Origin: a virus
Lineage: Duplodnaviria; Caudoviricetes
Virus record (IMG/VR): IMGVR_UViG_3300030099_000111
Location: 1-50,072 of that record
DNA: 50,072 nucleotides
Reading direction: 5' to 3' (one strand)
This document shows, one piece after another, positions 12,836-30,642 of the stretch (its first letter is position 1; each line of letters begins with the position of its first letter). The notes beneath the pieces are model-generated. The model did no database searches and had not been told where the DNA came from. It worked only from the letters and a program-made list of their open reading frames with translations. The position numbers and the translations under genes were made by a program.

Positions 12836-12991
12836 AGTTTAACTATAGTTCGTTTATTATTATAGTTATAGTGTAATAGTATCATAGTTTAACTAGTAGT
12901 GTCAATATATTTTTTTATTTAATTGGTAGTTTAACTTTAAGTTTAACTATTTTATAATCGTTTTATAGAAGTTTTAACTCTAAGTTTAACT
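12836..12991. repeat. Cluster of AGTTTAACT palindromic repeats
   Basis: Exact copies at 12836, 12886, 12928, 12940, 12983 and a variant at 12970, in a very AT-rich tract. Confidence 0.8.
12878..12905 (-). promoter_or_regulatory. Putative promoter TTGACA-N16-GATACT
   Basis: Minus strand ttgacactactagttaaactatgatact upstream of the virion arm. Confidence 0.5.
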
Positions 12992-13010
12992 AAGCTACTT
13001 CTACTTCGTA

Positions 13011-13038
13011 GTTTTACACGGATTTACACCTAAGTCAA
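13011..13038 (-). promoter_or_regulatory. Putative promoter TTGACT-N16-TAAAAC
   Basis: Minus strand ttgacttaggtgtaaatccgtgtaaaact. Confidence 0.5.
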
Positions 13039-13534
13039 CCCTAAAAGTACACCTAGTTGCATTATTATCACAGTGTGTTACCCTCTGTATACACTAAAAT
13101 AGGGCAAAACTCAAAATCTGGTGTGTTGCAGTGTACATATACATATACGGTATACCCCCTACTGGCCCTTGCAGGGTACATATCGTGAACAAAAGGTGAA
13201 CAAACCAGAAACAAAAGAACAAAAGGTAAACAAAATCTATGCAAAAATCCCAGCTCGTCAAAAACTCCGGGGTAAAGCATTGTTTTTATTGCACAAATTT
13301 ACAGATCAGTTGTCAGTATCTATAAAATATATGAAAAAAAGATCGAAAATTTCACGAGAAGCAAAAACTCTGGAATGGATGCACAAAACAGAAAAGCAAA
13401 TCACTTGAGCAAATCACCTCAAAAAATACCCAAGTTTTACACCCTACCCCATTGTGCAGCTTGTCGAATACCTACCCCAAACATAACGTAACCTATTGAA
13501 ATATATAACAAAACGCAGATAATTATTTTAGGGC

Positions 13535-13564
13535 TTTACATATTTAAAAAAGTATGAGCATACT
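13535..13564 (+). promoter_or_regulatory. Putative early promoter TTTACA-N18-CATACT
   Basis: Sigma70-like hexamers with an AT-rich upstream tract. Confidence 0.45.
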
Positions 13565-13676
13565 AGTCTCATCAAATTGCAGAGTAGCTTTAACGCCTTG
13601 ATCCTAAAGTTTGATAGTAAAAGCTCAGTAAGTGCAATCCAGTCTTACAAGAATAAATGACTAACTAAATAAATAC

Positions 13677-13705
13677 TTGACTAACTAAATTAAAAATTAC
13701 AGACT
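13677..13705 (+). promoter_or_regulatory. Putative early promoter TTGACT-N17-CAGACT
   Basis: 17-bp spacer; overlapped by the direct repeat TGACTAACTAAAT; predicted start coincides with the 5' end of the structured RNA. Confidence 0.6.
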
Positions 13706-13712
13706 AAATACA

Positions 13713-13973
13713 CAAGCTCTAGTAGATGGATGTCTACATGCTGACTAAATGAGAGGCTTAAAGAACCTCAGAGGAAGACGGATGGAAGTGACGCCGTTGT
13801 AGTAGAACCTACGTAAAACTATTCCCGAAGGTATGCAGTGCAACCCTGTGCTATAGAACGGTAAAATACATCAGTCCGTCATTAGGAAAAGCTTGATGTT
13901 TTTTGCGAGGCACACGCCAACTAATCTGAGCCAACTCAGACTTATGCTTGACATATGGGTTGGCTTGTGTCTT
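13713..13973 (+). ncRNA. Candidate structured ncRNA / early leader
   Basis: Nested helices 13713-18/13890-95, 13777-82/13875-80, 13794-98/13857-61; hairpins 13722-37 and 13753-69; second domain 13908-21/13959-73. Confidence 0.55.
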
Positions 13974-14001
13974 ACTGAAAATATTACAGAGAGGTGATAC
14001 A

Positions 14002-14139
14002 ATGCAAGTATGGACTTTAAACTTAAAAGACTATGAAACTAGCTATACTACTCAAATATTTATTGAGGCTAGTAGTTATAACAAAGCATTTGAAATATTA
14101 ACTAAATGGTATAGAGGTTGGGAGGTGATACATGACTAA
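14002..14139 (+). CDS. Small early protein
   Basis: ATG at 14002 after GAGGTG RBS; MQVWTLNLKD... Confidence 0.7.
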   Translation: MQVWTLNLKDYETSYTTQIFIEASSYNKAFEILTKWYRGWEVIHD

Positions 14140-14740
14140 GATAGTAAACGACTTCATGGCATACGTGGATAACATTGAGAATGTTTACACACAATGCACT
14201 AGTCCAGAGATAGCACACGGTATGACTTGGTATGCAGATGCTAAGTCTAGCGCCTACGAGATATGCGACAAGTATGAACTACCGTTGCACATTGTAGTCG
14301 GTGTTATTTCCGCACTAAGTCCGACTAACAAGTGGGAGATAAACCTACGCAATGCTGATGATATGTGCCGTATCTTTACAGACGGTGGCTATATAGAAGA
14401 GTGCAAGCCTAGCACGTATAACACAATGCGAGACAAGGCTTGGTCAATACTACAGAGTATGCCACACACTAGTGGAGATGTAGCATTCATACTCAGAGGT
14501 CCAAAAATCACAGACTTCTTTTGGTGTATCTTAGGTGATGACACTTGTGTAATTGATGGACACGCTTGGTGCATTGCTCACAACGATAGACGCAAGCTAC
14601 AAGAAGTACCAAACATAGGTAAAGCATTGCGACAAGACCTACAAGAAGCTTACAGAAGTGTAGGACTAAAGCACAATATGAAAGCATACGAGATGCAAGC
14701 TGCTACATGGTTAGCTTGGAAAAGAATACATAACGTATAG
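14132..14740 (+). CDS. Conserved early phage protein (possible HhH/glycosylase-like fold)
   Basis: WY, ISALSP..W..N, GPKI..F, IDGHA, QAATW motifs; GGAGGTG RBS. Confidence 0.7.
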   Translation: MTKIVNDFMAYVDNIENVYTQCTSPEIAHGMTWYADAKSSAYEICDKYELPLHIVVGVISALSPTNKWEINLRNADDMCRIFTDGGYIEECKPSTYNTMRDKAWSILQSMPHTSGDVAFILRGPKITDFFWCILGDDTCVIDGHAWCIAHNDRRKLQEVPNIGKALRQDLQEAYRSVGLKHNMKAYEMQAATWLAWKRIHNV

Positions 14741-14752
14741 GAAGGATATATA

Positions 14753-14944
14753 ATGCAATTTAAATGTGAAATAGACATGGACAACGATGCATTTGATGAC
14801 GGAGGTGATTATCATCGATTTGAGTTATCTAGAGTGCTTAACAAGGTAGCAAGAGAGTTTTATGAGTTTGGATGCTCTGAACGCACCAAAGCAATTTGGG
14901 ATGCCAACGGTAATAAAATTGGTTCTTGGACAATTAAAGTTTGA
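14753..14944 (+). CDS. Small early protein
   Basis: IDMDNDAF...DANGNKIG motif; AAGGA RBS. Confidence 0.75.
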   Translation: MQFKCEIDMDNDAFDDGGDYHRFELSRVLNKVAREFYEFGCSERTKAIWDANGNKIGSWTIKV

Positions 14945-14969
14945 CAACCAAATAAAATTATGATTTAAC
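14941..14969 (+). promoter_or_regulatory. Putative promoter TTGACA-N17-TTTAAC with extended TG
   Basis: ttgacaaccaaataaaattatgatttaact in the intergenic gap. Confidence 0.6.
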
Positions 14970-14998
14970 TAAACTACAAACAGAAAAGGAGACACACA

Positions 14999-15217
14999 AT
15001 GTTTGTAATATTCGCCACTAAGCCACTTAATGATGGTACTAAAGGTTTTCGCTTCAACTTCTTAGGCTACAAAGGTTTGACACGTAAGCGTAAGCATGAC
15101 AGCAGAGGCTACAAGATCAACACCGGTGGTTGCATGACAGCCATACACTTAGGCAAACGCACAGTGTACTTAGAGCATAGCTCTACACCACGCAAGTTGC
15201 GACACTTTGCAGGGTAA
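14999..15217 (+). CDS. Small basic early protein
   Basis: AAGGAG RBS, 72 aa. Confidence 0.75.
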   Translation: MFVIFATKPLNDGTKGFRFNFLGYKGLTRKRKHDSRGYKINTGGCMTAIHLGKRTVYLEHSSTPRKLRHFAG

Positions 15218-15231
15218 AAAAGGATAATCTC

Positions 15232-15423
15232 ATGCAACTAAGAGAGCTAACACAAGCCCTATCTAATGGTGATGATGTACGTTGGAGTAACGATGGTTAT
15301 CATGTACAGTGGGAAACTCTACCAAATGGTGCTGCAATCTGTATAAGATATACAGCCAATGGTTTTGGTGGGGCAATGGCTAACAGTGAAATAAAAGACT
15401 GTTATATAAAGGAAAGCGCATGA
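15232..15423 (+). CDS. Small early protein
   Basis: AAGGA RBS, 63 aa. Confidence 0.7.
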   Translation: MQLRELTQALSNGDDVRWSNDGYHVQWETLPNGAAICIRYTANGFGGAMANSEIKDCYIKESA

Positions 15424-15566
15424 CTAGATATTACATAGCAACGGTGTCCAGTGATGGACGCCACGCTAACCAACGATGGCTAACAAATATAGATGACTTG
15501 ACTGATGTTATGATACAGTACGTCAATGAAGGATACAGAGTAACTATAGAAGAGGAGATACACTAA
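15420..15566 (+). CDS. 48-aa early protein (not in ORF track)
   Basis: MTRYYIATVSSDGRH...; ATGA and TAATG coupling to both neighbours. Confidence 0.65.
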   Translation: MTRYYIATVSSDGRHANQRWLTNIDDLTDVMIQYVNEGYRVTIEEEIH

Positions 15567-15781
15567 TGGCATACAAAAATGAAATATCAGCATACAACGC
15601 AAACTATGGTGGTTTACGTGGTGCAAAGATACTAGAGTTTTACATGGAGCAATGCGACTATGACCCCGATCATTACTGGCCTACGTTTAGGATGCAAAAA
15701 GGTAATGACGTATTTAAGTTTATATTATCGCAAGACCCGGAAGGTAATGGCAGTGGGTTTGCTTTCATAGAGGATGTATAA
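15566..15781 (+). CDS. Small early protein
   Basis: GAGGAG RBS; SQDPEGNGSGF motif. Confidence 0.75.
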   Translation: MAYKNEISAYNANYGGLRGAKILEFYMEQCDYDPDHYWPTFRMQKGNDVFKFILSQDPEGNGSGFAFIEDV

Positions 15782-15783
15782 AG

Positions 15784-16914
15784 ATGAACGTACTAAGTTT
15801 ATTTGATGGTATGTCTTGTGGACAGATTGCCTTAGACAAACTAGGCATACCAGTTAACAAATACTTTGCGGCAGAGATTGACAAGTATGCAATCCAGGTT
15901 GCCAAGAAAAACTATCCTGACATGATCCACTTAGGTGATGTCAAAGAGATAGACCCTAATGAGTTACCGAAAATCGATTTGCTCATTGGCGGTTCACCTT
16001 GTCAAGGATTTTCGTTTGCAGGAAAGCAACTCAACTTTTCTGATCCACGATCACAGTTATTCTTTGAATACGTGCGACTACTCAAAGCACTCAAGCCAAA
16101 GTATTTTTTGATGGAGAACGTTAAGATGAAGAAGGAGAGCATGGATATCATTACTGAGTATCTTGGTGTAGAACCTGTGGAGATAAACAGCAATCTTGTC
16201 TCAGCTCAGAACAGGCGTAGACTTTACTGGACAAACATACCAGTAGACGGATTGCCAGAAGATAAAGGTACAGTTTTAGCTGATATCTTAGAAGATGGAT
16301 TCACAGATCGTGACAAGTCCTACTGCTTGGATGCTAGTTACTACAAGGGTGGTGGTGCATCTAATGTACGGCTGTACTTTGAAAAGAGTAGACGACAGAT
16401 TGTATTCGGATCAGGTGACAACAGACTAGATGTAACAGGTGCAAGGATTGTTAACCGTAGGCTAAACAAGGACGGTAAACGTAAAGACAATGACAAGAGT
16501 ATTAAGCCACAGGCTAGGTTAGAACTACGCAAGGATAACAAAGCAGGTTGCCTTACAACAGTACAGAAAGATTCTGTTGTTGCAAAAACAAACTCAAGTG
16601 GAATGAACATCGTAGGTGAGGCCAACATCAAAGGCAGAGAATCTATACGCAGAGTGTACGGCACAGACGGTAAAGCACCAACATTATTAGCTACTACTGG
16701 TGGTAACACACAACCTAAGATAGCACAGCCTATGACACTTGACGAGGGTACAACATGGCGTAAACTCACTGTGACAGAATGTGAGAGACTACAAACTGTA
16801 CCTGATGGGTATACCTGCGGCGTATCAAACACACAACGCTACAAGATGCTAGGCAACGGATGGACAGTAGATGTAATCAAACATATCTTTGAAGGACTAA
16901 AGGAGACAGCATAA
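15784..16914 (+). CDS. DNA (cytosine-5) methyltransferase
   Basis: Motif I LFDGMSCG, catalytic GGSPCQ, ENV, QNRRR, ECERLQ, LGNGW. Confidence 0.95.
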   Translation: MNVLSLFDGMSCGQIALDKLGIPVNKYFAAEIDKYAIQVAKKNYPDMIHLGDVKEIDPNELPKIDLLIGGSPCQGFSFAGKQLNFSDPRSQLFFEYVRLLKALKPKYFLMENVKMKKESMDIITEYLGVEPVEINSNLVSAQNRRRLYWTNIPVDGLPEDKGTVLADILEDGFTDRDKSYCLDASYYKGGGASNVRLYFEKSRRQIVFGSGDNRLDVTGARIVNRRLNKDGKRKDNDKSIKPQARLELRKDNKAGCLTTVQKDSVVAKTNSSGMNIVGEANIKGRESIRRVYGTDGKAPTLLATTGGNTQPKIAQPMTLDEGTTWRKLTVTECERLQTVPDGYTCGVSNTQRYKMLGNGWTVDVIKHIFEGLKETA

Positions 16915-17087
16915 TGAAACTATTTGAGTGTAAGTTAGAAGTGGGTACACTTTATCCAGTTCGTGAAGCAGAAAATGTAGAACAATTTATTGAAGATTTA
17001 ATTGAAGAATATAATGATCAGTGCTTTGGTTTATTTGATATAGATAAGAGTATGATTAAAGATGCAATTTTATCATCGGAAACATAG
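16914..17087 (+). CDS. 57-aa acidic protein (not in ORF track)
   Basis: MKLFECKLEVG...; AAGGAG RBS, TAATG coupling. Confidence 0.65.
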   Translation: MKLFECKLEVGTLYPVREAENVEQFIEDLIEEYNDQCFGLFDIDKSMIKDAILSSET

Positions 17088-17100
17088 TGGAGGAAGTGTA

Positions 17101-17319
17101 ATGAAAATAATAGTACAAGCAGAACAAAAACTATACATGGATGTAGAAGTAGAAGTGCCAGATGAACTAATAAAATATATTGATAAAGTTCCTAACATGA
17201 CTAATGCTAATATATCTGATTGGATAAATCAAAACTATTGGAACTTTGAATGGTCAGAGTACGACAGTAGTTTAGATTGGACTGAGTGGGAAGAAGTAAC
17301 AGAGAAGGAGACAGCATGA
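17101..17319 (+). CDS. Small acidic protein
   Basis: ATG at 17101 after GGAGG. Confidence 0.7.
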   Translation: MKIIVQAEQKLYMDVEVEVPDELIKYIDKVPNMTNANISDWINQNYWNFEWSEYDSSLDWTEWEEVTEKETA

Positions 17320-17666
17320 TGCAACTAACACTAACAATAAACACCAACGCATACCCTGAGTATGACAAGCATCAACTCAATGAGATGCTAGGATTACTCC
17401 CACTATGGGTAGCTGAACACGTAGGCAATGACGATGGCACAGACTTGGTGCAGTTTATGGAAGATCGCTACGGCTTTGGCAGACTGTACGAGTTTGGCGG
17501 TAAGATAAACGAAAATGGTGACTACGTATCTGACTACGATGATGATGCAGATTTGCCATACATTGGTAAAATGATTACTAAGCATGGCTATGCATACTTC
17601 TATACTTATGCTATCATTGCATTACCACAGCCAGACGGTAAACACTTTATAACAAGGATGGACTAA
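17316..17666 (+). CDS. Hypothetical early protein
   Basis: Start MMQLTL after AAGGAG; ends HFITRMD. Confidence 0.75.
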   Translation: MMQLTLTINTNAYPEYDKHQLNEMLGLLPLWVAEHVGNDDGTDLVQFMEDRYGFGRLYEFGGKINENGDYVSDYDDDADLPYIGKMITKHGYAYFYTYAIIALPQPDGKHFITRMD

Positions 17667-17839
17667 TGGTTTACATACTAATATGGATGCAACTCTTCAC
17701 AGGACAGACAGTGGAGCATTACCAACTAGGCACGTATGCTACACTGGAGGAGTGTCAAATCGAGATGAGCACAGCAGCCAAGATGGTGACACACAAAGCG
17801 GAGACTGTAGCTTGCCTGGAGGTGGAGGTACAAAGGTAA
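17666..17839 (+). CDS. 57-aa protein with hydrophobic N-terminus and two Cys (not in ORF track)
   Basis: MVYILIWMQLFTGQTVEHYQLGTYATLEECQIEMSTAAKMVTHKAETVACLEVEVQR; TAATG coupling on both sides. Confidence 0.7.
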   Translation: MVYILIWMQLFTGQTVEHYQLGTYATLEECQIEMSTAAKMVTHKAETVACLEVEVQR

Positions 17840-18024
17840 TGTACTTCACACACTACAAAACTAAATACATCCTGTACGATGATATGGGGCGTGTTATAAT
17901 ATCAACTAGAGACAAAAATATTATTAGAAAAACAGCAGAGAGGATCAAGAATGACACCAGAAGAGAGAGCACTGAAGTTCCAAAGAGAGCAAGAAGAAAG
18001 AAAAGCAAGGATAGCAAAAGCTAA
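17839..18024 (+). CDS. Small basic protein
   Basis: Start MYFTHYK after GGAGGT; it is the C-terminal part of the tracked ORF 17683..18024. Confidence 0.6.
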   Translation: MYFTHYKTKYILYDDMGRVIISTRDKNIIRKTAERIKNDTRRESTEVPKRARRKKSKDSKS

Positions 18025-18229
18025 AAAAGGTATGCTTGATAGTCAGATAAAAGCTATAGAAAACTATCACAACAATATGCGTCACATACTCAGCGATGTA
18101 GAAGAGATGAATGACTTGTGGCTATCTCAGATTAGAGATATGAGTAAGGCTTGGTACGAGATAGGCAGAGAGTTTGATCTAGACAACAGTTCATTTTGGG
18201 AATGGCAGAATAAACAAGATGGACAATAG
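17951..18229 (+). CDS. Hypothetical helical protein
   Basis: GAGGA RBS, 92 aa. Confidence 0.7.
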   Translation: MTPEERALKFQREQEERKARIAKAKKGMLDSQIKAIENYHNNMRHILSDVEEMNDLWLSQIRDMSKAWYEIGREFDLDNSSFWEWQNKQDGQ

Positions 18230-18416
18230 TGTAAGACAGGAGGCACAAGCCCAAGCAGAGCAAGCGTATGATTTGTTTATACTGTGGAGTAAACGCACAG
18301 TGTATGCTATCATTGCTACTCTGCTACTGCTGGCAAGCTGCGACTTTGGCACAGACAAGGAGACAGGCAGTCAGTACAACGGTGCAGTGTATGCACCACG
18401 TAACATAGGAGAGTAA
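18219..18416 (+). CDS. Small membrane protein (possible lipobox LASC)
   Basis: Hydrophobic AIIATLLLLASC segment. Confidence 0.65.
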   Translation: MDNSVRQEAQAQAEQAYDLFILWSKRTVYAIIATLLLLASCDFGTDKETGSQYNGAVYAPRNIGE

Positions 18417-18418
18417 CA

Positions 18419-18550
18419 ATGTCAGAAGTAGACAGTTTATTGAGGAGAATACAAGCAGCAGAAGATAAGATAGAAGCTATTCAAGATAGAATAGATAGAT
18501 TAGAGAAACACATGAAAGAGCTAAGACTAAAGGTGGAGAATAAGAAATGA
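18419..18550 (+). CDS. 43-aa coiled-coil peptide (not in ORF track)
   Basis: MSEVDSLLRRIQAAEDKIEAIQDRIDRLEK...; AGGAG RBS. Confidence 0.65.
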   Translation: MSEVDSLLRRIQAAEDKIEAIQDRIDRLEKHMKELRLKVENKK

Positions 18551-18642
18551 TACCTACGACACTTAGAGAATACATATGGTTCATGCATCACTACGACATA
18601 GTATGGACACCAAGCAATGAAGAAGAGGAGCCACCGTTTTAA
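18547..18642 (+). CDS. 31-aa peptide ending EEEEPPF (not in ORF track)
   Basis: MIPTTLREYIWFMHHYDIVWTPSNEEEEPPF; GGAG RBS, ATGA/TAATG coupling. Confidence 0.6.
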   Translation: MIPTTLREYIWFMHHYDIVWTPSNEEEEPPF

Positions 18643-18758
18643 TGCAACCAGGAACACAGATTATTATACCATTCGTACTAGCCTACATTGGAGGCTTCAT
18701 ATATTTTTTAGTAAAAGGCTATCGTAATGCTGATGACAAAAGAAAAAAAGATATTTAA
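18642..18758 (+). CDS. 38-aa single-pass membrane peptide (not in ORF track)
   Basis: MQPGTQIIIPFVLAYIGGFIYFLVKGYRNADDKRKKDI; GAGGAG RBS. Confidence 0.6.
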   Translation: MQPGTQIIIPFVLAYIGGFIYFLVKGYRNADDKRKKDI

Positions 18759-19647
18759 GAAAAACAAAAGCTACAGAATAGAGGAGATCATAGGTTACTA
18801 CATAAAGTCAGATGCATTTTGCAAGCTAGGATCTGCATCACAGAAAGATTATCACGACTGCTTAATGGTTATTGATGGTGACATAGGTGGTATAAACATA
18901 CGCAGACTAGACGTACAAAACATGCAATCGCTGTATAATTTATGGCTAGGTAGAGGTATCTACAGAGCTAACAAGATAGCTGCGATCATGTCTATACTTA
19001 TCAACTGGGCTAAGAAGAATGGCATTAGTATGGAGAACCCTATGCCACTGCTTGATAAGACACCCAACCCACCACGCAAAGTAATGTGGGAGCCAGAGCA
19101 AGTAAACCAGTTCTTACACACAGCATACAGCGAGTGGAAGTGGCGTAGCATTGGCTTGATTGTGCAGATGGCTTACGAGTGGGGGCAGCGAGTAGGTGAC
19201 ATGCGTATGCTTACGTGGGCAGCTATCAACTTTGACAAGAAGCGTTGCGACTTAGAGCAGAGCAAGCGTGGAGCAGAGGTGCATCTACCTATCAGTGATC
19301 CATTGATGCATGTGCTCAAGCAACAACACGAAACGTTTGGCTTTCAGTGTTTAGTGACACCACAGGTTTACCCTAGTGACGGTGCATACAAACCCTACAG
19401 CAAAGAGATGCTACACGTTTATGTCAATGCAATACTAGAAGCTGCTGGACTACCTCGACACCTCACAGCTATGGACATGAGGCGTACAGCTATCACTGAG
19501 ATGGTAGAGGCTGGTGTAGATATAACACAGATCAAACAAGTAAGTGGACACACTAACATAAATAGCTTGACTCCTTATATCAAACACACGTACACCGGTG
19601 CATCAGAAGCATTAGCCCAGCGCCAAGCATTCAAGGATAAGAAATAA
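18727..19647 (+). CDS. Tyrosine recombinase / integrase
   Basis: GQRVGD (Arg I), QSK, DMRRT (Arg II), SGHT, catalytic Tyr in TPY. Confidence 0.9.
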   Translation: MLMTKEKKIFKKNKSYRIEEIIGYYIKSDAFCKLGSASQKDYHDCLMVIDGDIGGINIRRLDVQNMQSLYNLWLGRGIYRANKIAAIMSILINWAKKNGISMENPMPLLDKTPNPPRKVMWEPEQVNQFLHTAYSEWKWRSIGLIVQMAYEWGQRVGDMRMLTWAAINFDKKRCDLEQSKRGAEVHLPISDPLMHVLKQQHETFGFQCLVTPQVYPSDGAYKPYSKEMLHVYVNAILEAAGLPRHLTAMDMRRTAITEMVEAGVDITQIKQVSGHTNINSLTPYIKHTYTGASEALAQRQAFKDKK

Positions 19648-20540
19648 TGTTTATAGATATCAATAGTTTAGACATATCTGAGGGTCAAACTATCAGACAG
19701 GACTGCCCTAGATGTAAAGGTAAGAATACTTTCACTGCTACAAAACGTAATGGCTGCATTGCTTACAACTGCTATAAGGTATCGTGTGATGTAGGAGGCT
19801 ACACTAATACAGGCATAGCAAAGGATGAACTAGAGCACTATCTAGTAACACCTCTGATCGAAACAGGTAATATAAACAAGAGGTTAGAGCACTTTGTTTA
19901 TCCAGAACATATAACAACTGACGTAAGTAACAAATATGTAAATAGATTTCGTATGCGCTGGGTAGGCGAGTACGCAAATCCCTTAGAAAACATAGACTTA
20001 CTGTACGATCTTAAAGATAAACGTGCAGTGTTTCCTATCTATAATGATGGACTTATAGTAGATGCAATAGGGAGAGCACTGGACGGTAAGCAGCCCAAGT
20101 GGTTACGCTACGGTGGTGCAGCAGAGTATGCCAAGTATTGCTATGGTGAACCTAACGGTATCTACATTGTTGTAGAGGATGTAATTAGTGCAGTAACTGT
20201 CGCAAAGATATACCCAAATGTCACAGGTTTTGCTTTATTAGGTACAAGCCTGACCGATGCACACAAAGAATGCTTGAGTGATAACGCTAACTATGTTATG
20301 GTTGCACTTGATCCAGACGCACTAAGAAAAACTTTGGTCATGCGTAAGGAGATAGAAGCGTGGTGTGATATACCTACAAGAGCAATAAGATTGCGTGATG
20401 ATGTAAAGTATCAAGACCCAGAAGATATAGAACAGATAGGAGAATGGATACATGTTGCAGAAAAGTCACACAAACAAACAAAATCCAATGGCGAAGGAGG
20501 TAAGACAATCAAAGTACAGACAACAAGTAGTACCCGATAA
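19647..20540 (+). CDS. DNA primase (Zn finger + TOPRIM)
   Basis: CPRC...CYKVSC, GRAL..PKWLRY, VVEDVISA, ALLGT, ALDPDA. Confidence 0.9.
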   Translation: MFIDINSLDISEGQTIRQDCPRCKGKNTFTATKRNGCIAYNCYKVSCDVGGYTNTGIAKDELEHYLVTPLIETGNINKRLEHFVYPEHITTDVSNKYVNRFRMRWVGEYANPLENIDLLYDLKDKRAVFPIYNDGLIVDAIGRALDGKQPKWLRYGGAAEYAKYCYGEPNGIYIVVEDVISAVTVAKIYPNVTGFALLGTSLTDAHKECLSDNANYVMVALDPDALRKTLVMRKEIEAWCDIPTRAIRLRDDVKYQDPEDIEQIGEWIHVAEKSHKQTKSNGEGGKTIKVQTTSSTR

Positions 20541-20607
20541 GAAGAAATCTAGACCCCAACGTAAAGACAAACATAAAGGAGCAAGACATGATGTCTCAGG
20601 AGATTAA
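20452..20607 (+). CDS. 51-aa ArfA-like basic peptide (not in ORF track)
   Basis: MLQKSHTNKQNPMAKEVRQSKYRQQVVPDKKKSRPQRKDKHKGARHDVSGD; AGGAG RBS. Confidence 0.6.
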   Translation: MLQKSHTNKQNPMAKEVRQSKYRQQVVPDKKKSRPQRKDKHKGARHDVSGD

Positions 20608-21112
20608 CCCAAGAACAGGTAAGCCATACTACTATCAAGAAGGTAACAGCGCAGAGATACAAAGGAAGAGAAACAAAAAAAGTAATCCCAATCGTATGTA
20701 TGTTGATGGTAAATATATTAAAGATTCACATCCTCTACACAAACCTGGTAAATATTCATCATTTGGTGATGCTGCATTTACTGCTTTACAAAAAGATAAA
20801 CAGGTAAAAGAAGGTTATGTCTACGTTATTACTAACCCAGCTTGGCCTGAGTGGGTCAAGATAGGTATGGCTATAGATGCAGAGGATAGACTTAACGGTT
20901 ATCAAACTAGTTCACCTATGCGTGACTACCAGTTAGTCCACGCTATAGCGACACCTGACAGAGCTAGAGCAGAACGTGTAGCTCACAAAGCTGCCGCCCT
21001 GTGTGGCGAGAGACAAGGTGAGTGGTTCAAGATAGCAAACGAAGAAGCTGTGACAATATTGCAACACATAAAGGAAACTGAAGATGGACAAAAAAGAGAG
21101 TCAACTAACTAA
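20588..21112 (+). CDS. GIY-YIG / T5orf172-like endonuclease domain protein
   Basis: GYVYVI...WVKIG...RLNGYQTSSP...E..H...GEWF. Confidence 0.85.
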   Translation: MMSQEINPRTGKPYYYQEGNSAEIQRKRNKKSNPNRMYVDGKYIKDSHPLHKPGKYSSFGDAAFTALQKDKQVKEGYVYVITNPAWPEWVKIGMAIDAEDRLNGYQTSSPMRDYQLVHAIATPDRARAERVAHKAAALCGERQGEWFKIANEEAVTILQHIKETEDGQKRESTN

Positions 21113-21314
21113 AGATATCTATCGTATGATAAGAACTCTCAGCGCAAAGACGCTATCTAAAACTCAACGCAGAAGTATTGAGGAAGACGTAGCGTACAAG
21201 CAAAAGAAACTACAAGATCATATGGGCGTAAAGACTTTTATACGCCCTATGAACAACATGGAACGTAAAGCTGCAGCAGAAAAAAGAAAAGCTAATAGCA
21301 ATGAGAAGATATAA
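21084..21314 (+). CDS. Hypothetical basic protein
   Basis: 76 aa, AAGGA RBS, coupled to neighbours. Confidence 0.65.
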   Translation: MDKKESQLTKDIYRMIRTLSAKTLSKTQRRSIEEDVAYKQKKLQDHMGVKTFIRPMNNMERKAAAEKRKANSNEKI

Positions 21315-21462
21315 AGAAGTAAAATGTGATATATGTGAAGAGTACTTCGACACAACTAAATACACATCATGCCCAAAAGAATCCTGTAAGTCAGTTCAGG
21401 ATGGTTGGGAAGATGAAACGTCAACACAAATACAACAGACAAGCAGAGGATTTAACAGGTGA
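21301..21462 (+). CDS. 53-aa zinc-ribbon peptide (not in ORF track)
   Basis: CDIC...CPKESC. Confidence 0.6.
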   Translation: MRRYKEVKCDICEEYFDTTKYTSCPKESCKSVQDGWEDETSTQIQQTSRGFNR

Positions 21463-21605
21463 GCGAACAATATTGTACAACTAAAGGTTTAGGCTGGGCA
21501 TTTTTAATCTGTGCTTTTTTTATAATAGGCGTACCTATACTGATGTGGTTGGCTGTAGAAGGATCAGATTGGTATGAGATATTTAAAATGATGAATCCCA
21601 TTTAA
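21459..21605 (+). CDS. 48-aa membrane peptide (not in ORF track)
   Basis: GTG start after GAGGA; LGWAFLICAFFIIGVPILMWLAV. Confidence 0.6.
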   Translation: MSEQYCTTKGLGWAFLICAFFIIGVPILMWLAVEGSDWYEIFKMMNPI

Positions 21606-21615
21606 GGAGAGTAGA

Positions 21616-22845
21616 ATGGAAAATGGAGAGTTAGCCTTACTTAGGACACTCATGGATAAGGAGTTCTATGACAGTAACAAAGGCATACACACGCCCGACA
21701 AACTGTTTACTAAAGATGTTCGTAAGGTAAAGAGAACTATAGACTACGCTATGAGTCAGTTCGATAAGGATCTAAACTTCTCAGAGTTAGAGGGGTTGTT
21801 CTTTACACGAGAGACACTGACCACAGCTAACAAAGAGTCTTACAAAAGATTGTTTGATAAGCTACGGCAAGAGAAACCCATGAATCAAGAGGTAGCTCAA
21901 GAAGTTATGTCTAACCTGTTCCAACAAGTAGTAGGTGAAGAGGTGGCTAACTTAGGCTTTGACTACGTGAATGGTGAGAAGAATACACTGGAGCCACTAC
22001 GTAACATAATCACAGACTATCAAGATAACTTCCTGCCCAACTTAAAAGTTGAGTGGGGTGATATATCTATCGACAATCTGTTGGTGGCTAATGAGATACA
22101 ATCTAAGTGGCAGTTTAACATACCGTCACTGCAGCGCAAGGTAGAGGGCATATCAGGTGGACATCTAGTTTTAGTGGGCGCTAGACCTAACACAGGCAAG
22201 ACATCCTTCCACGCATCTCTGATTGCCTCTGAGCGTGGTTTTGCTAGACAGGGTGCTAAATGTATCGTCTTGTGTAATGAAGAGGACTACACTCGTGTCG
22301 GTGCTAGATATCTCAGTGCTGCATCTAATATGCCTATGGAAGAGATCAAGGACAACTACGCTCTTGCATCCACAAGGTACAAGCCAGTGTACGACAACAT
22401 ACGAATAGTAGATAGCACTGGCAAGGACATGGTGTGGGTTGAGGCTGTAGTAAAGCATCACAATCCTGACATCGTAGTGCTAGATATGGGTGACAAGTTT
22501 GCTAACAAGACAGGTGCAGACTCCCACGTGTATCTCAAGGATGCAGCCATACACGCCAGAAACATAGCCAAGCAATACGAGTGTGCAGTTATCTGGATGT
22601 CTCAGCTATCAGCAGAAGCAGAGGGTAAGATATATGTAGATCAGTCTATGCTTGAGGGCAGTAAGACAGGTAAAGCTGCTGAGTGTGACTTGATGATACT
22701 AATATCTAAGAACCCACAAGTAGAGGGTGAGTATGAATCAGACACACAGCGACACTTGAACGTAGCAAAGAACAAACTAAAGGGTGGATGGCATGGGGTT
22801 GTCCACTGTCAGTTAGATGGAGAGAGAGCAAGGTACTCAGCATGA
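21616..22845 (+). CDS. DnaB-like (SF4) replicative helicase
   Basis: Walker A GARPNTGKT, VVLD, MSQLS, GSKTGK, KNK. Confidence 0.92.
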   Translation: MENGELALLRTLMDKEFYDSNKGIHTPDKLFTKDVRKVKRTIDYAMSQFDKDLNFSELEGLFFTRETLTTANKESYKRLFDKLRQEKPMNQEVAQEVMSNLFQQVVGEEVANLGFDYVNGEKNTLEPLRNIITDYQDNFLPNLKVEWGDISIDNLLVANEIQSKWQFNIPSLQRKVEGISGGHLVLVGARPNTGKTSFHASLIASERGFARQGAKCIVLCNEEDYTRVGARYLSAASNMPMEEIKDNYALASTRYKPVYDNIRIVDSTGKDMVWVEAVVKHHNPDIVVLDMGDKFANKTGADSHVYLKDAAIHARNIAKQYECAVIWMSQLSAEAEGKIYVDQSMLEGSKTGKAAECDLMILISKNPQVEGEYESDTQRHLNVAKNKLKGGWHGVVHCQLDGERARYSA

Positions 22846-24884
22846 GAAGAGTAGTAGATGTAGAGAACTCAATAACTCTACGAGATGGTAAGATATTTAA
22901 TGATCCTTACGAGCCAAGCAACACACTTACTGAGGTGGGTGTGCTGTGCTTAGACACAGGAGAAAAAAAACTATTACCGTTTGACCACAAAGAAGCCACA
23001 GATCAACATAAGAAAAACGATTGTGTTTTACAGAGAATGCTAGACAACACAACGCTACTGATAGGACATAACCTACAGTATGATCTAGCCTGGCTTTGGG
23101 CTAACGGTTTTAAATATGATGGTGACATATATGACACAATGCTTGCAGAATATTTACTTTTACGTGGACAAAAGCAACCACTAAGTTTAGAGCAGTGCGC
23201 TATCAGACGTAACTTACAATATCAAAAAGACGATACGCTCAAGGCGTACTATAAGAAAGGATACAACACAAATGAAATACCACTTGACGAACTCAGCCAT
23301 TATCTTGAGTATGACTTGCTTACTACTGGGGAGTTGTACAAAGCTACCGAAGCTGACTTTTCAACCCCAGCCTCCGCTTCCATTCGAGCAGTCAAAGACG
23401 TTACCTTTAGAACCTGCAAAGTCCTCACAAGAATGTCAATGGCAGGAATCAGGGTGGATAGACATGCCCTCGAACACGTCCGTGATAGATTCGAGCGAGA
23501 GCGAAAAGAAATACTTGATAGACTGCAAGCCACCACACGAGAGTTGATGGGTGGCACACCTATTAATCTTAACTCACCAGAGCAGATGTCGTGGGTTATA
23601 TTTAGCCGTAAGCCTAACGATAAGAAAGAATGGGTAGGCATCTTTGAATATGTAGATGACAAAGGTTTTAAGGATGCAGTAAAAAAGAATAGCAAGATGA
23701 TCTTTAAAACAAAAGCAAGCACTTGCCCTACTTGTAATGGTGGTGGTAAAGTACACAAAACAAGAAAGGATGGCACACTACATAAGATACCAAACAAATG
23801 CAAAGCCTGTGACGCTAGGGGCTTCCTACTCACAGCAACAAACGAAATGGCAGGGCTTGGGTTCTTTCCACCAAGTAAGAAGTGGGTCAGTGCCAATGGC
23901 TTCGGTGTAGGTAAAACAAACCTAGATGCACTGATAGCCACAGCTAAAAACAACAACATGGAGAAAGCAAATGAGTTCCTTCAAGACCTTAAAAGGCTTA
24001 GTGCTATTAGCAGTTATCTTAGTAGTTTTGTGGATGGTATTATCACCAACTGTAAAACAAATGACAAACTACACATCAACCTTACCCAGCATATCACCAG
24101 TACAGGTAGATTCTCTGGAAGAAACCCCAACATGCAAAACATGCCAAGAGGAGGAACCTTCCCAATAAAACGTGTGTTTATCTCAAGATGGAAGGGTGGC
24201 AAAATTATTGAGTCAGACTTTGCTCAACTTGAGTTCAGAACGGCTGCGTTCTTAGCACAGGACAAGACAGCAATGCACGAGATAGATACAGGATTTGATG
24301 TACACTCCTACACTGCAAAGGTTATCAGTGACGCAGGACAACCTACAACTAGGCAGGAAGCAAAGGCACACACCTTCGCCCCTCTCTTTGGCGCTACTGG
24401 ATATGGTAGATCAAAAGCAGAGGCTGCGTATTACAAAGAGTTTGTTGAGAAGTACAAAGGCATAGCTAGTTGGCATACCAGATTAGGCAATGAGGCTGTT
24501 AACGAGGGTAAGATAACCAACGTCAGTGGCAGACAGTACGCATTCCCTGATGTCATACGTAGAGAGAACGGCACTGTGTCGCACTTTACTATGATCAAGA
24601 ACTACCCTGTGCAAGGTTTCGCTACAGGAGATGTCGTACCAGTTGTATTGATAGAACTTGACCGTTTGTTACAGCCTATGCACTCATGTTTAGTCAACAG
24701 TGTCCACGATAGTATGGTAATTGACACACACCCTAATGAAATAGATGATGTGCTAGGTATAATTAGTTTGATTAACACTAATCTAAATGATATGATTCAA
24801 AAAGAATACAATATAAAAGTTAACGTACCTTTGTTATTAGAATCAAAAATAGGAGACAACTGGCTTGACACAAAGGACGTTTAA
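22842..24884 (+). CDS. polA: Family A DNA polymerase with DnaJ-type Zn-finger insertion
   Basis: Exo DVE/GHNLQYD, TGRFS..PNMQN, motif A DFAQLE, motif B RQEAKAHTF, NYPVQG, motif C VHDS; CPTCNGGG...CKACDARG. Confidence 0.96.
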   Translation: MRRVVDVENSITLRDGKIFNDPYEPSNTLTEVGVLCLDTGEKKLLPFDHKEATDQHKKNDCVLQRMLDNTTLLIGHNLQYDLAWLWANGFKYDGDIYDTMLAEYLLLRGQKQPLSLEQCAIRRNLQYQKDDTLKAYYKKGYNTNEIPLDELSHYLEYDLLTTGELYKATEADFSTPASASIRAVKDVTFRTCKVLTRMSMAGIRVDRHALEHVRDRFERERKEILDRLQATTRELMGGTPINLNSPEQMSWVIFSRKPNDKKEWVGIFEYVDDKGFKDAVKKNSKMIFKTKASTCPTCNGGGKVHKTRKDGTLHKIPNKCKACDARGFLLTATNEMAGLGFFPPSKKWVSANGFGVGKTNLDALIATAKNNNMEKANEFLQDLKRLSAISSYLSSFVDGIITNCKTNDKLHINLTQHITSTGRFSGRNPNMQNMPRGGTFPIKRVFISRWKGGKIIESDFAQLEFRTAAFLAQDKTAMHEIDTGFDVHSYTAKVISDAGQPTTRQEAKAHTFAPLFGATGYGRSKAEAAYYKEFVEKYKGIASWHTRLGNEAVNEGKITNVSGRQYAFPDVIRRENGTVSHFTMIKNYPVQGFATGDVVPVVLIELDRLLQPMHSCLVNSVHDSMVIDTHPNEIDDVLGIISLINTNLNDMIQKEYNIKVNVPLLLESKIGDNWLDTKDV

Positions 24885-24893
24885 TGATATAAC
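24865..24893 (+). promoter_or_regulatory. Putative promoter TTGACA-N17-TATAAC with extended TG
   Basis: ttgacacaaaggacgtttaatgatataact overlapping the end of the polymerase gene. Confidence 0.7.
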
Positions 24894-24916
24894 TCTAACT
24901 CTGAAACTTTTTACAT

Positions 24917-25771
24917 ATGAAAGGTAAAATTATGGAAAATGCAGTCGCACTTAAAGTAGACAACATGAACTTGTCTGATGCTATGGGTTTCTCAAGCCCA
25001 GCAACACAGTCGCAGTCTAGTCTACGTAGGATTACAGGTACAGTTATACAAGAAGTTATTGATGGTAAGGTAGCCTCTTCACCTGTGTTCAAGATTACAT
25101 CTGAAGATGATGTAGTATATGCCAGAGAAGTAGAGGTTAGACTATTTGCAGAGCGTCAGAAGTGGCAGCGTTGGGATAGTGAGAACAAGACTATGCAGAA
25201 GTCTGTCATGTCTAACTCACTCAACGTTGATTTGAAAGATACACTTGGTACGTTCAATCTTGGTAGACCGTCAGGTTACATCAAGGACTTCCAAGCTCTG
25301 CCCAAAGATCAACAGGACTTGATACGCAGTGTTAGCCGTGTCAAAGTTATGATGGGTAAAGCTAAACTAGTTGGCGCTTTCTACGAAGGTGGTGATCCTG
25401 CTACAGGTTATGATGATGAGTTTGACTTTGTGATGGACGTTAAGAACAGAGACAGTCTCAAGTTTATTGATGGCGTAGTAAGCAAACTAATGAAGAAGAA
25501 GATCTCACCTGCAGAGCACACCATAGCTCTACTTGGTGAAACACGTAGCTTGCCTAACGGCAACCCTTACATGGTAACTAACGCCTCACTCAGTGAGTTC
25601 GTTGGCTTGGCCGACGGTGATAATGAAACACTGCAGAACTTTTTAGACTACATAGATTCTAGTAACGAGTACGTTATTGGTAAGTGGTCAGAGAATAATG
25701 TAGAAACTCTATCTCCATCTGACCAGGATATAGTTGCCAACATAGTCGATGTGGAGGACTTTGACCAGTGA
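24917..25771 (+). CDS. Probable single-stranded DNA-binding protein
   Basis: Position between polymerase and exonuclease, acidic C-terminus VEDFDQ; start may be the ATG at 24932. Confidence 0.55.
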   Translation: MKGKIMENAVALKVDNMNLSDAMGFSSPATQSQSSLRRITGTVIQEVIDGKVASSPVFKITSEDDVVYAREVEVRLFAERQKWQRWDSENKTMQKSVMSNSLNVDLKDTLGTFNLGRPSGYIKDFQALPKDQQDLIRSVSRVKVMMGKAKLVGAFYEGGDPATGYDDEFDFVMDVKNRDSLKFIDGVVSKLMKKKISPAEHTIALLGETRSLPNGNPYMVTNASLSEFVGLADGDNETLQNFLDYIDSSNEYVIGKWSENNVETLSPSDQDIVANIVDVEDFDQ

Positions 25772-26631
25772 ACCACCCTGCTGAACTAGCTTTGCATCAG
25801 TATCTTAGGAGTGCTATCGAAGGTAAATCTGAGATGTCTCAGGATATCATTGATAAAATCAAAGAAGATATTGGTGCTGCTCTTGACAAGCAGTTTAACG
25901 CTGCTGATGAAAAGAAAGAGTTTAAACTTAGGATGTCCAATGTTGGGCGTCCGAAGTGTCAGCTATGGTTCGAGAAGAATGATCCCGATCATCAGGAGCC
26001 TCTGCCTACTTCATTCAAAGTCAATATGATATTTGGTGATATGGTAGAGGCTCTACTAAAAGGTTTGCTCAGAGCATCTGGAGTGCAGTTTGGTGATAAC
26101 GAAAAGGTGTCAATGCAACTTAACGAAAAAGATGAACTGTCAGGTGAATATGACATGCTACTGGATGGCAAGATAGACGATGTTAAGTCAGCTAGTACTT
26201 GGTCATACGATAATAAGTTTGTTGACTTCTATACATTGAACAGCAGTGACTCCTTTGGTTATGTGCCACAGCTTGTAGGTTACGCCACAGCAGCTAACAA
26301 AAAAGTTGGTGGCTGGTGGGTTGTAAATAAAAACAACGGTAGCTTCAAGTATGTGTCAGCAGCAGACGTAGACAAGGACATGGTTATCCAAAAGATAAAA
26401 GATGTACACACCTACCTTGAAAGCAATGCACCATTTGAGAGATGCTTTACAGACGAGCCAGAGATATACAGAGGTAAAGCTAGTGGTAACTACAAGCTAC
26501 CCAAGTCCTGCACTTTCTGTAACCACAAGATAAAATGCTGGCCTAATCTAAAGAGTTTACCATCAAAGGTATACAGTGGTAAGAAAGAACCACCAACCAT
26601 ACATTACACAAAACTAAGAGGTGAATATTAA
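25768..26631 (+). CDS. PD-(D/E)XK Cas4-like exonuclease
   Basis: LRMSNVGRPKC, GEYD..DDVKS, GYVPQLVGY, CTFC...CW. Confidence 0.85.
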   Translation: MNHPAELALHQYLRSAIEGKSEMSQDIIDKIKEDIGAALDKQFNAADEKKEFKLRMSNVGRPKCQLWFEKNDPDHQEPLPTSFKVNMIFGDMVEALLKGLLRASGVQFGDNEKVSMQLNEKDELSGEYDMLLDGKIDDVKSASTWSYDNKFVDFYTLNSSDSFGYVPQLVGYATAANKKVGGWWVVNKNNGSFKYVSAADVDKDMVIQKIKDVHTYLESNAPFERCFTDEPEIYRGKASGNYKLPKSCTFCNHKIKCWPNLKSLPSKVYSGKKEPPTIHYTKLRGEY

Positions 26632-26924
26632 TGACTACAATAACAATCAATGACAAAGACTATGCAACAGACGATATGTCTGATAAAGAAAAAGAGATAG
26701 TGCAACTGTTGCAGCAGAACCTAGTATCTGTAAATATGCTAGAGCACTGGCTACAATGCGTTAAGTTTGTAGGGGAGATGAAGACACGAGAACTAGAGAA
26801 GTCTTTAAATGTAGAGACAGAAATGGTTCGTGCTCGTAACGAAAAAGGACACTTTATAGCAGATGACCCAAACACCCCAGAAAACGAAGCGTGGGTTGAG
26901 AAGCCCAAAGAAGAGAAGGAGTAG
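26631..26924 (+). CDS. Hypothetical protein with C-terminal RAR..KG.F.ADDP.TP.NEAW module
   Basis: TITINDKDY N-terminus; motif seen in the translation. Confidence 0.75.
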   Translation: MTTITINDKDYATDDMSDKEKEIVQLLQQNLVSVNMLEHWLQCVKFVGEMKTRELEKSLNVETEMVRARNEKGHFIADDPNTPENEAWVEKPKEEKE

Positions 26925-27345
26925 CTCTAGAAGGTATCGCAGTGGTTTAGAAAGTGATATTGCTGATTACCTAAAAGATAAACAGAACCAAGTCAGGTAT
27001 GAACGTTTAAAAATAGAGTGGGAAGACTTACGCTATAGAACGTACACGCCTGACTTTATTTTAGACAACGGTATCATAATAGAAACCAAGGGCATCTTTG
27101 ATACTGAGGACAGACGTAAACATCTAGCCATACGAGAGCAACATCCAGAGCTAGACATACGTTTTGTTTTTAGTAACAGCAAAGCAAAGTTGTACAAAGG
27201 CGCAAAGTCTAGATACTGTGAATGGTGTGATAAACACGAGTTCAAATGGGAACATCGTATTATACCTGAAGCATGGCTAAAAGAAAAAGGCAAACCTATT
27301 AAAGTTAAACTTATACCTTTTAAGGGGGAGAAGAAAACAACATGA
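26863..27345 (+). CDS. Endonuclease I (T7 gp3-like Holliday junction resolvase)
   Basis: YRSGLE, YTPDFIL, IETKG, DRRKH, HPELDIRFVF; true start uncertain. Confidence 0.92.
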   Translation: MTQTPQKTKRGLRSPKKRRSSSRRYRSGLESDIADYLKDKQNQVRYERLKIEWEDLRYRTYTPDFILDNGIIIETKGIFDTEDRRKHLAIREQHPELDIRFVFSNSKAKLYKGAKSRYCEWCDKHEFKWEHRIIPEAWLKEKGKPIKVKLIPFKGEKKTT

Positions 27346-27692
27346 CAAAATATGTAATAGGAAAGGATGAAGTAGCTTTAGTTTTGAAGCCTTGTTCTTT
27401 TGATGGTAAAGGTAATTGGACAGGAGAGTTAAACACTGGTTTAGTTGTAGGTGAACTTAGCTTATTAAATCCAGAAGACACTTCATATTTAGTTCATCTA
27501 GCTACTATGATGGGTGCATTTTTAGAGCTTGCACAATATGATCAAGATCTATATAATTTAGTAGAAGAAAGAAGAAACGAACTAGTAGGTTATGAACAAG
27601 AAGAAGATACTCCATTGTACGAAAAGGTAGAAGGCACAGAGGGTAAAGTTCTAAAGCTTACTAGATTTACAAAAACACAAGGAAGCGCATAA
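27342..27692 (+). CDS. Hypothetical protein
   Basis: 116 aa, coupled overlap; ends FTKTQGSA. Confidence 0.75.
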   Translation: MTKYVIGKDEVALVLKPCSFDGKGNWTGELNTGLVVGELSLLNPEDTSYLVHLATMMGAFLELAQYDQDLYNLVEERRNELVGYEQEEDTPLYEKVEGTEGKVLKLTRFTKTQGSA

Positions 27693-27991
27693 TGGATACT
27701 ATGATAGATACACTCACTATGAACGGACAAACATTGTTTGATGATTCAGATATAATTAGTTTTGATCCAGTAGATAAACCTGCACACTATAATTTAAATG
27801 ATGGGGTTGAGTGTATAGACTATATTAAACAAGTTTTAGGAAAAGAAGGTTTTGTTGCATACTGTAGAGGTAACGTTATGAAGTACAACCACAGAGCTAT
27901 GTACAAAAATGCTACACCTGTAGAGGATCTAAAGAAAGCACAACAATATCTGACTTGGGCTAATGAAACATTAAGGGAAATACACAAGTGA
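27692..27991 (+). CDS. DUF3310 / T7 gp1.7-like nucleotide kinase domain protein
   Basis: DPVDKPAHY, ECIDYI, GNVMKY..R..YKN, EDLKKA..YL. Confidence 0.88.
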   Translation: MDTMIDTLTMNGQTLFDDSDIISFDPVDKPAHYNLNDGVECIDYIKQVLGKEGFVAYCRGNVMKYNHRAMYKNATPVEDLKKAQQYLTWANETLREIHK

Positions 27992-28164
27992 TAGGAAAGA
28001 AAAAGTTTAGCGTTACATTTTTACTAGAAGTAGAAGAGCCAAGTAACGTGCTATCAACTGTAGAGGATGCACACGTGGAAGATGTACACGATCTGATACA
28101 TAATACGTTTCACGATATAGACGATGTGAATATAGAAAATTTAAATATAAGGGAGAGATTATGA
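27988..28164 (+). CDS. 58-aa acidic protein (not in ORF track)
   Basis: GTG start, KKFSVTFLLEVEE...; GTGA/ATGA overlaps. Confidence 0.65.
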   Translation: MIGKKKFSVTFLLEVEEPSNVLSTVEDAHVEDVHDLIHNTFHDIDDVNIENLNIRERL

Positions 28165-30110: not shown

Positions 30111-30121
30111 AGGAAAATAAA

Positions 30122-30247
30122 ATGCATTCATTAGGAATATTAATAGCTTTTATCGTAGCTATGGAAGCGTATCAAAAACACGGTATGTCATTTCTTGGCA
30201 ATGGAGAAGATACAACCCCTACTGAAATAATAGAGAGCACAGAATAG
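30122..30247 (+). CDS. 41-aa peptide (not in ORF track)
   Basis: MHSLGILIAFIVAMEAYQ...; AAGGA RBS. Confidence 0.5.
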   Translation: MHSLGILIAFIVAMEAYQKHGMSFLGNGEDTTPTEIIESTE

Positions 30248-30641: not shown

Positions 30642-30642
30642 A

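Follow-up and report, generated by a model that had tools for sequence, protein, structure and literature searches.

In the T7 R0.3 and lambda N-leader sites, RNase III cuts the early leader RNA and raises translation or stability, while the putL and putR elements of HK022 consist of two free-standing stem-loops of about 70 nt that need no phage protein. The purine riboswitch class is translational and has roughly 15 unpaired bases in its junction, and the phi29-type packaging RNA is a free-standing transcript, with two loops of 4-nt complementarity, that goes with protein-primed DNA packaging. According to Arbiol et al. (2010; PMC2839356), the PeSL cassettes of T4-type phages occur many times per genome and have a simple terminator as their stem-loop, and text passages of Fremin, Bhatt and Kyrpides (2023; PMC10690425) report 8,495 unnamed structures predicted from IMG/VR. 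HMO-2011-type phages are described in PMC9038755 as a dominant and widely distributed marine viral group. The main text of that paper contains no mention of promoter, RNA polymerase, intergenic or non-coding, and is thus silent on how these phages start gene expression; a search for literature joining HMO-2011 with noncoding RNA found none.

We describe here an RNA module, uncatalogued in Rfam and strongly supported, that lies between the early promoter and the first gene of such a phage (Table 1). It was found in a 50,072-bp IMG/VR virus record (the window, by which we mean the whole stretch of DNA analysed), estimated to be 92% complete. Its DNA polymerase shares 66-67% identity with the enzymes of Roseobacter phages CRP-603, CRP-2 and CRP-207, and 55% with that of Puniceispirillum phage HMO-2011, which makes the window phage an HMO-2011-type marine podophage. 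The window codes for a portal protein, large terminase, DnaB, PolA, ribonucleotide reductase, a methyltransferase and a tyrosine integrase, and contains no tRNA or tmRNA. Its genes run on the minus strand left of 12733 and on the plus strand from 14002 to 30110; the stretch under study forms the right end of the 1.27-kb divergent spacer and adjoins the first plus-strand gene.

Compared with the described systems, the conserved module of about 94 nt (hereafter the core) has no match to the phi29 packaging RNA model (RF00044) and differs from that RNA in being continuous with the mRNA and in having loops that share 3 complementary bases; the window phage itself has a large terminase and a portal. 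The PeSL cassettes (PMC2839356) and the core with its promoter are both conserved combinations of a promoter and a structure placed before interchangeable small early genes, but the core is single-copy, about 94-290 nt in size, multi-helix, and located after the promoter rather than before it; by analogy, it could also serve as a recombination linker. The candidates of PMC10690425 come from the same data source and belong to the same class, structures that covary and lie no more than 25 nt upstream of a phage gene; the core motif may already be listed, unnamed, among those 8,495 models, and the text passages name none like it.

Table 1. Features of the early leader of the window phage (positions are those of the window)
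Feature	Position	Strand	Description
Early promoter-like site	13677..13705	+	TTGACT 13677-82, 17-nt spacer, CAGACT 13700-05
Variable 5' leader module (domain 1, type A)	13713..13893	+	Chain of local hairpins, A5 alignment
CAAGCT / AGCTTG	13713-18 / 13890-95	+	Complementary segments in sequence
H1	13722-26 / 13733-37	+	98.3% of cells paired
H2	13753-56 / 13766-69	+	Perfect 4-bp stem in 16/16 type-A sequences
H3	13773-76 / 13822-25	+	Covaries by eye
GACGGA / TCCGTC	13777-82 / 13875-80	+	Complementary segments in sequence
H4	13777-81 / 13794-98	+	Conserved loop AUGGAAGUGAC; 88.5% of cells paired
H5	13799-802 / 13809-12	+	Read by eye
H6	13834-38 / 13846-50	+	Loop UGCAACC; family register by eye; covaries by eye
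H7	13858-61 / 13876-79	+	94.0% of cells paired
Terminator-like stem of the earlier note	13868..13904	+	ACAUCA in H7 loop, UGAUGU, U-run
ACATCA / TGATGT + T-run	13868-73 / 13894-99, T-run to 13904	+	Present in sequence
Conserved core module (domain 2 + P0), ~94 nt	13894..13986	+	Covariance model R1, covariation
P0	13894-13903 / 13977-13986	+	10 bp, U-rich 5' strand, A-rich 3' strand
Internal loop, 3x3	13904-06 / 13974-76	+	Between P0 and P1
P1a	13907-14 / 13966-73	+	8 bp
P1b	13916-22 / 13958-64	+	7 bp
Junction AA	13923-24	+	Only unpaired bases of the three-way junction
P2	13925-30 / 13935-40	+	Loop CCAA
P3	13941/13957 + 13943-46/13952-55	+	Loop CUUGA
Ribosome-binding site + AUG	13990..14004	+	AGAGGUGA; core GAGG 13991-94, AUG at 14002

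An earlier note on this DNA had drawn positions 13713-13973 as a closed domain of about 183 nt, with a competing terminator-like stem, followed by a second domain. All the complementary segments that it listed lie about where it had put them, including CCGTT/AACGG, GTAGA/TCTAC, GAGG/CCTC, the TGCAACC loop and the second domain at 13907-13973, and the minimum free energy fold of 13713-13973 (-74.4 kcal/mol) matches its drawing. Against shuffled sequences this energy reaches only z = -2.08, 3 of 200 shuffles were as good, and the reverse strand gave z = -1.79, so that the single-sequence fold alone is weak evidence. Between 13650 and 13950 the G+C content reaches 0.35-0.45, while the flanks have about 0.30, and just short, non-conserved open reading frames overlap 13713-13973, in line with the GC enrichment and the lack of a credible reading frame that had been noted. 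A coding reading of the 34-aa frame at 13893-13997 was rejected, as one relative (L050) has a stop after 9 codons (by eye) and as the substitutions compensate each other. A relative is present as contigs in two metatranscriptome runs, which may contain DNA; the contig depth is flat over genes and spacer alike and thus speaks neither for nor against a transcript. As the lone sequence left the matter undecided, relatives were gathered for comparison.

For this purpose, the neighbouring DUF7178 protein (14132-14740) was used to collect 42 viral loci, 10 of which share sequence with the window from about 13855 to the ribosome-binding site (BLAST, nhmmer); the element was unmatched in 31 of the 42, some of which have little upstream sequence. 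A pattern derived from the alignment matched 30 viral stretches, and a stricter core pattern with 18 fixed bases matched 67 IMG/VR viral stretches, as against 3 chance, non-folding matches in 596 Gb of bacterial and archaeal genomes. The covariance model R1, built on 27 sequences, recognized 64 phage loci, each on the strand expected, but did not match any of the 3 bacterial ones; the core occurs once per genome, and in the window R1 found a single copy, scoring 118.3 bits on the plus strand and 20.7 bits on the minus strand. Among five cultured relatives, only CRP-207 carries the module (R1, 57.4 bits), at 54672-54791, unannotated, just ahead of the end of the record and of gp01, and the R1 search gave no match in CRP-13, CRP-603, CRP-2 or HMO-2011. 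BLAST against 50,697 phage records revealed no other cultured carrier: nothing matched the 1.5-kb spacer, matches to the 152-nt core were chance ones of 22-24 nt, and the CRP-207 leader matched only itself. In an Rfam scan, no family reached the gathering score anywhere in the window, or E<=10 within 13000-14300, and with Rfam 15 the sole match in 12 other carrier loci was an unrelated tRNA. The CRP-207 locus (MZ892987.1, about 54370-54895; L079 in our collection) consists of a type C 5' leader followed by the core, both unannotated; an unannotated open reading frame starts there about 42 nt past the junction and stays open to the end of the record.

The core has the shape of a long helix, P0 plus P1, topped by a three-way junction that bears two hairpins of equal length. 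On a structure-blind MAFFT alignment (27 sequences, 26 distinct rows), 96.1% of the cells of P1-P3 pair, with double changes at 16 of the 26 pairs; none of 500 shuffles was as good, and slid controls paired in 23-52%. P0 was added by RNAalifold. On 57 distinct model-aligned sequences, an alignment that is fitted to model R1 and leans towards it, 95.8% of the cells of the whole core pair and double changes occur at 30 of the 35 pairs, including all 6 pairs of the outer part of P0; here too, 0 of 500 shuffles reached the result, and slid controls paired in 33-50%. The second domain (13907-13973) drawn in the earlier note is thus fully confirmed by the pairing of its relatives. The helices also tell the strand, since 289 cells hold G-U and 8 hold A-C, which assigns the folded molecule to the plus strand; read on the other strand, the same helices pair in only 81.5% of cells. 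A structure at the DNA level or on the minus strand was accordingly rejected, on these cells and on the R1 scores (118 versus 21 bits).

The module stands directly before the first early open reading frame (14002-14139, 45 aa, without a PHROG match), its end lying 4 nt from the ribosome-binding site. In 47 of the 51 loci with a called reading frame, the start codon is found 36-53 nt past the junction-closing G, which places the end of P0 about 8-25 nt before the start codon; in the remaining 4 loci the first reading frame is 76-135 nt past the junction. Three loci (L094, L100 and L111) have 100-135 nt with a TTGACA box between the module and the first reading frame, so the coupling of the module to the ribosome-binding site is not absolute. 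The first genes behind the module belong to more than 20 unrelated families, and genes are gained and lost at this first position; the 45-aa reading frame is missing in two loci (L054 and L062), where the same leader directly precedes the DUF7178 gene. Taken together, the comparisons establish the core fold, its strand, its position, its restriction to phages and its independence from the downstream gene. In folding calculations, 42 of 46 sequences had a more open region from -16 to +3 with the native leader than with shuffled ones, although the p-value overstates this because the sequences are related to one another, with a mean unpaired probability of 0.55 (native), 0.44 (shuffled leaders) and 0.63 (region alone); as any stable self-contained fold opens the ribosome-binding site, this result does not show regulation.

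The most likely role of the core would be cis control of the translation or stability of the early mRNA. More specifically, we propose, with about an even chance of being right, that it is a cis-acting leader module at the ribosome-binding site, which both insulates this site and offers a sequence-specific surface. Host RNA polymerase would start near 13712 at the sole TTGACT-N17-CAGACT promoter, and the transcript would begin with a swappable chain of hairpins of about 180 nt, followed by the conserved module. Folding of the core on itself would bar the variable leader from pairing with the ribosome-binding site, and the module would present a rigid surface of specific sequence beside the ribosome landing zone; by binding there, a factor from host or phage, a nuclease or a ligand could set the yield of the first early protein and the lifetime of the mRNA. 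Against cis control speak the absence of the element in related phages and the lack of a co-occurring protein family: none was found in the available flanks, the best candidate being a 75-aa family that occurs at 21 of 54 loci with the element and at 3 of 22 without it.

The long helix of the core also raises the question of a nuclease processing site, at which RNase III or a similar enzyme would cut P0-P1 and free the coding mRNA from the variable leader, leaving it with a defined, structured end by which its translation or stability would be raised. We regard this as unlikely, even though the helix of about 25 bp is near-continuous, has a conserved internal loop and stands directly before the ribosome-binding site of the first gene, with a 5' module that is swappable or absent, as expected of a discarded piece. 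The architecture of an RNase III site is indeed present (P0 of 10 bp, a 3x3 loop and P1 of 8 + 7 bp, i.e. about two turns), and the known leader sites likewise combine a long imperfect helix with an internal loop, are transcribed from an early host-type promoter, and precede directly the ribosome-binding site of the first early gene, whose translation they influence. A nuclease that reads double-stranded RNA, however, has no need of a three-way junction with invariant loops, a feature that sets the core apart from those sites, with which it shares no sequence similarity; moreover, the sequence of the internal loop is conserved only in the main clade, and cleavage at this locus is a prediction.

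The apex of the core is its most constrained part. Invariant or nearly so are the U-G pair closing P1, the junction AA, the motifs GCCAAC and GCUUGAC, and a C-G pair and a U-U mismatch at the base of P3, some of these bases having been fixed by the search patterns. P2 and P3 have six layers each, as is needed for side-by-side packing with touching loops, and their loops are able to form three pairs, CAA:UUG. With 4 and 5 nt, these loops do not resemble those of anticodons. From these sequences, a loop-loop contact between CCAA and CUUGA, giving the core a tuning-fork shape, appears plausible; one L2 loop variant (L046/L007) keeps CAA, the loops being otherwise fixed by the search patterns, so that variation provides no test of the contact.

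Such an apex would suit a ligand-sensing riboswitch, with the junction as aptamer and P0/P1 as the switching helix, on whose state it would depend whether the purine-rich ribosome-binding site can pair with the U-rich 5' strand of P0. In its favour, the part above P1 measures about 65 nt and has, as do purine riboswitches (RF00167; about 65-70 nt), a P1 helix, a three-way junction and parallel hairpins of equal length with complementary loops, here invariant, as are the junction nucleotides (U-G closing pair, AA, C-G and U-U), and the ribosome-binding site is adjacent, again as in RF00167-type aptamers. We nevertheless consider it unlikely, given that the two unpaired junction bases (AA) leave little room for a pocket, that neither the RF00167 model nor Rfam as a whole gives a match, that unrelated downstream genes provide no metabolic logic and no association hinting at a ligand, and that a conserved alternative pairing with the ribosome-binding site was not demonstrated. 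It is likewise doubtful, and slightly more so, that the 94-nt module represents a new aptamer class reading a host signal (metabolite, alarmone or ion) in the first seconds of infection; if true, it would gate translation of the first early gene in some of the ocean's most abundant podophages and thereby perhaps, in members with an integrase such as the window phage, the decision to lyse or to lysogenize.

Upstream of the core, the relatives are far less uniform. Sorting of 54 unique loci by motif gave 17 of type A (that of the window), 4 of type B, 12 of type C and 21 others, the upstream module of about 180 nt being kept in a subset of loci and different upstream modules being borne by the others. 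In one type (L060), the promoter lies about 45 nt ahead of the core and there is no domain 1, from which it follows that the core works without the 5' module. Where present, domain 1 is a chain of local hairpins parted by conserved single strands. RNAalifold, run on alignment A5 (21 sequences of types A and B), returned three of these (H4, H6 and H7), and H2 shows at least 7 different stem sequences, all perfect, in the 16 type-A sequences; the lower values of a first count (H2 58%, H6 50%) reflect misregistration of H2 by MAFFT and the use of the single-sequence register for H6. The GUAGA/UCUAC and GAGG/CCUC hairpins and the hairpin with the 7-nt UGCAACC loop, all taken from the earlier drawing, prove conserved and covarying in the relatives. 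Its single closed domain of 183 nt does not survive the comparison: CAAGCU/AGCUUG, GACGGA/UCCGUC and CCGUU/AACGG pair in only 52-62% of cells, little above slid controls, and several positions are broken in 16-20 of the 21 rows. The family keeps instead two local ACGG/CCGU hairpins (13777-98 and 13858-79). As ACGG and CCGU each occur twice in the window, both the nested long-range fold and the two local hairpins can be drawn, and sequence comparison supports the local hairpins. A pattern scan for domain 1 alone, with a weak pattern for which about 100 chance matches were expected by estimate, gave 105 new loci of which 2 were real, one cut by a contig end (L160) and one that carries the core too (L190).

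Another reading is a trans-acting RNA that is released from the leader and serves as decoy or sponge, its target being a host protein or a defence system. We judge this most improbable. An RNA that is large, elaborate, highly conserved and made first after infection would fit such a role, as would its accessory nature, the element being present in only some relatives, and GGA motifs occur in several domain 1 loops, e.g. AUGGAUG in H1 and AUGGAAG in H4, which we take to resemble CsrA-type binding sites. Alphaproteobacterial hosts are mostly without CsrA, and the phage has no CsrA gene; in the window there is no GGA in the H2 loop, the 5' module differs between loci, and no terminator follows the core, which runs straight into the ribosome-binding site.

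The junction between the two domains had been read in the earlier note as an attenuator or switch, in which ACAUCA/UGAUGU and the U-run terminate transcription unless the closing helices of the 183-nt domain form. The relatives give these bases another partner, UGAUGU and the U-run being the 5' strand of the covarying P0, which pairs with the A-rich tail 3' of domain 2 (by eye, GAUUGC/GCAAUC, CUAUUUU/AAAAUAG and AUGUUUU/AAAACAU in different members). Measured against shuffled upstream sequence, pairing of this arm with the 47 nt upstream gave z = -1.4 in the window and a family mean of z = +0.41, with 0 of 57 sequences below -2, whereas pairing of the same arm with the downstream tail gave a mean z of -1.86 and 24 of 57 below -2. 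The terminator-like stem has 6 AU-rich pairs and a loop of about 20 nt, and was not called by a simple terminator scan (3-8-nt loop); the U-run is absent in L098 and L089, and the L060 type lacks the upstream module. With upstream pairing at chance, no call in the scan and members devoid of the U-run, the competing terminator is no feature of the family. Since in addition the closing helices are not conserved, attenuation seems very unlikely to be the role of the leader, notwithstanding that the window does contain the stem and a run of six U, that the duplex is somewhat above shuffled upstream sequence both there and in L099 (z = -1.4 each), and that many loci with the upstream ACAUCA segment also bear the matching 3' arm (by eye). 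A weak, lineage-specific termination may yet take place in the window.

As regards the promoter, the pattern TTGACN-N16-18-NAGACT occurs once in the whole window, both strands counted, at 13677, and 33 of the 54 unique phage loci have it 51-342 nt ahead of the junction, which fits a transcription start that we infer from sequence to lie near 13712. The -10 element that had been claimed just before the RNA corresponds to a -10-like CAGACT ending at 13705, 7 nt ahead of 13713. This work thereby defines the likely single early promoter of the window phage. Overall, the comparisons indicate that the stretch is a real structured 5' leader RNA of the plus strand with a fold other than the one first drawn, and they support the earlier notion that the early leader holds a phage RNA with several helices, non-coding and not described before, which starts a few bases past a promoter. 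A rival promoter, made up of TTGACA in loop L3 and CTTACT, was discarded, as its "spacer" covaries with bases upstream of the "-35" and as L046/L007 has there a 10-nt insertion. In the window, three tandem repeats of about 20 nt with GACTAA(CT)AAAT (13652-13710) overlap the early promoter, one giving the -35 box and another the -10-like AGACT box. Relatives without the module (L017, L020 and L029-L036) display a different, recurring arrangement, in which a TTGAC box, a short hairpin and then a -10-like box lie just upstream of the DUF7178 gene.

A position close to the promoter is what a put-like processive antiterminator would call for, that is, an RNA that rides the polymerase past the terminators of the 16-kb early operon. 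The core is indeed promoter-proximal, indifferent to the first gene and present once per genome behind the only such promoter, no RNA polymerase gene was seen among the 9 window proteins scanned, and, as in the cis-acting put RNAs of HK022, two stem-loops are adjacent. P2 and P3, however, though adjacent without a spacer, are enclosed by P1 and P0 and so sit inside a long helix, and the element abuts the ribosome-binding site, a position that antitermination does not require; terminator-like sites are not enriched over 13600-31000 (13 versus 9.1 +/- 3.1 expected), few being on the plus strand, and the element is absent from close relatives. HK022 and the window phage, moreover, belong to unrelated phage groups with unrelated hosts. 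Antitermination here is thus a prediction to which we give little credence.

For cis control of the early mRNA, which remains our preferred reading, a direct approach is at hand, as CRP-207, which grows on Rhodobacteraceae FZCC0040, carries the module and makes its function directly testable in a cultured phage-host pair. If the core acts as a sensor, or as an operator that binds a factor, infection of marine alphaproteobacteria would have a new control point, and expression work in these bacteria would gain a compact, portable leader.

Two further features were observed in the divergent spacer. At 12836-12991, five exact plus-strand copies of AGTTTAACT occur within 156 bp, embedded in direct repeats of 17-20 nt, while the other 50 kb contain just a single further exact copy; these repeats look like operators or iterons for divergent promoters. 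Further to the right, the segment 13104-13406, which contains direct repeats of GAACAAAAGGTRAACAAA, stands out in one seawater metagenome by a contig depth far above all others (310-585 versus 30-100 nearby); numerous abundant phages seem to have it in common, and it might represent an origin, a packaging site or the end of the genome.
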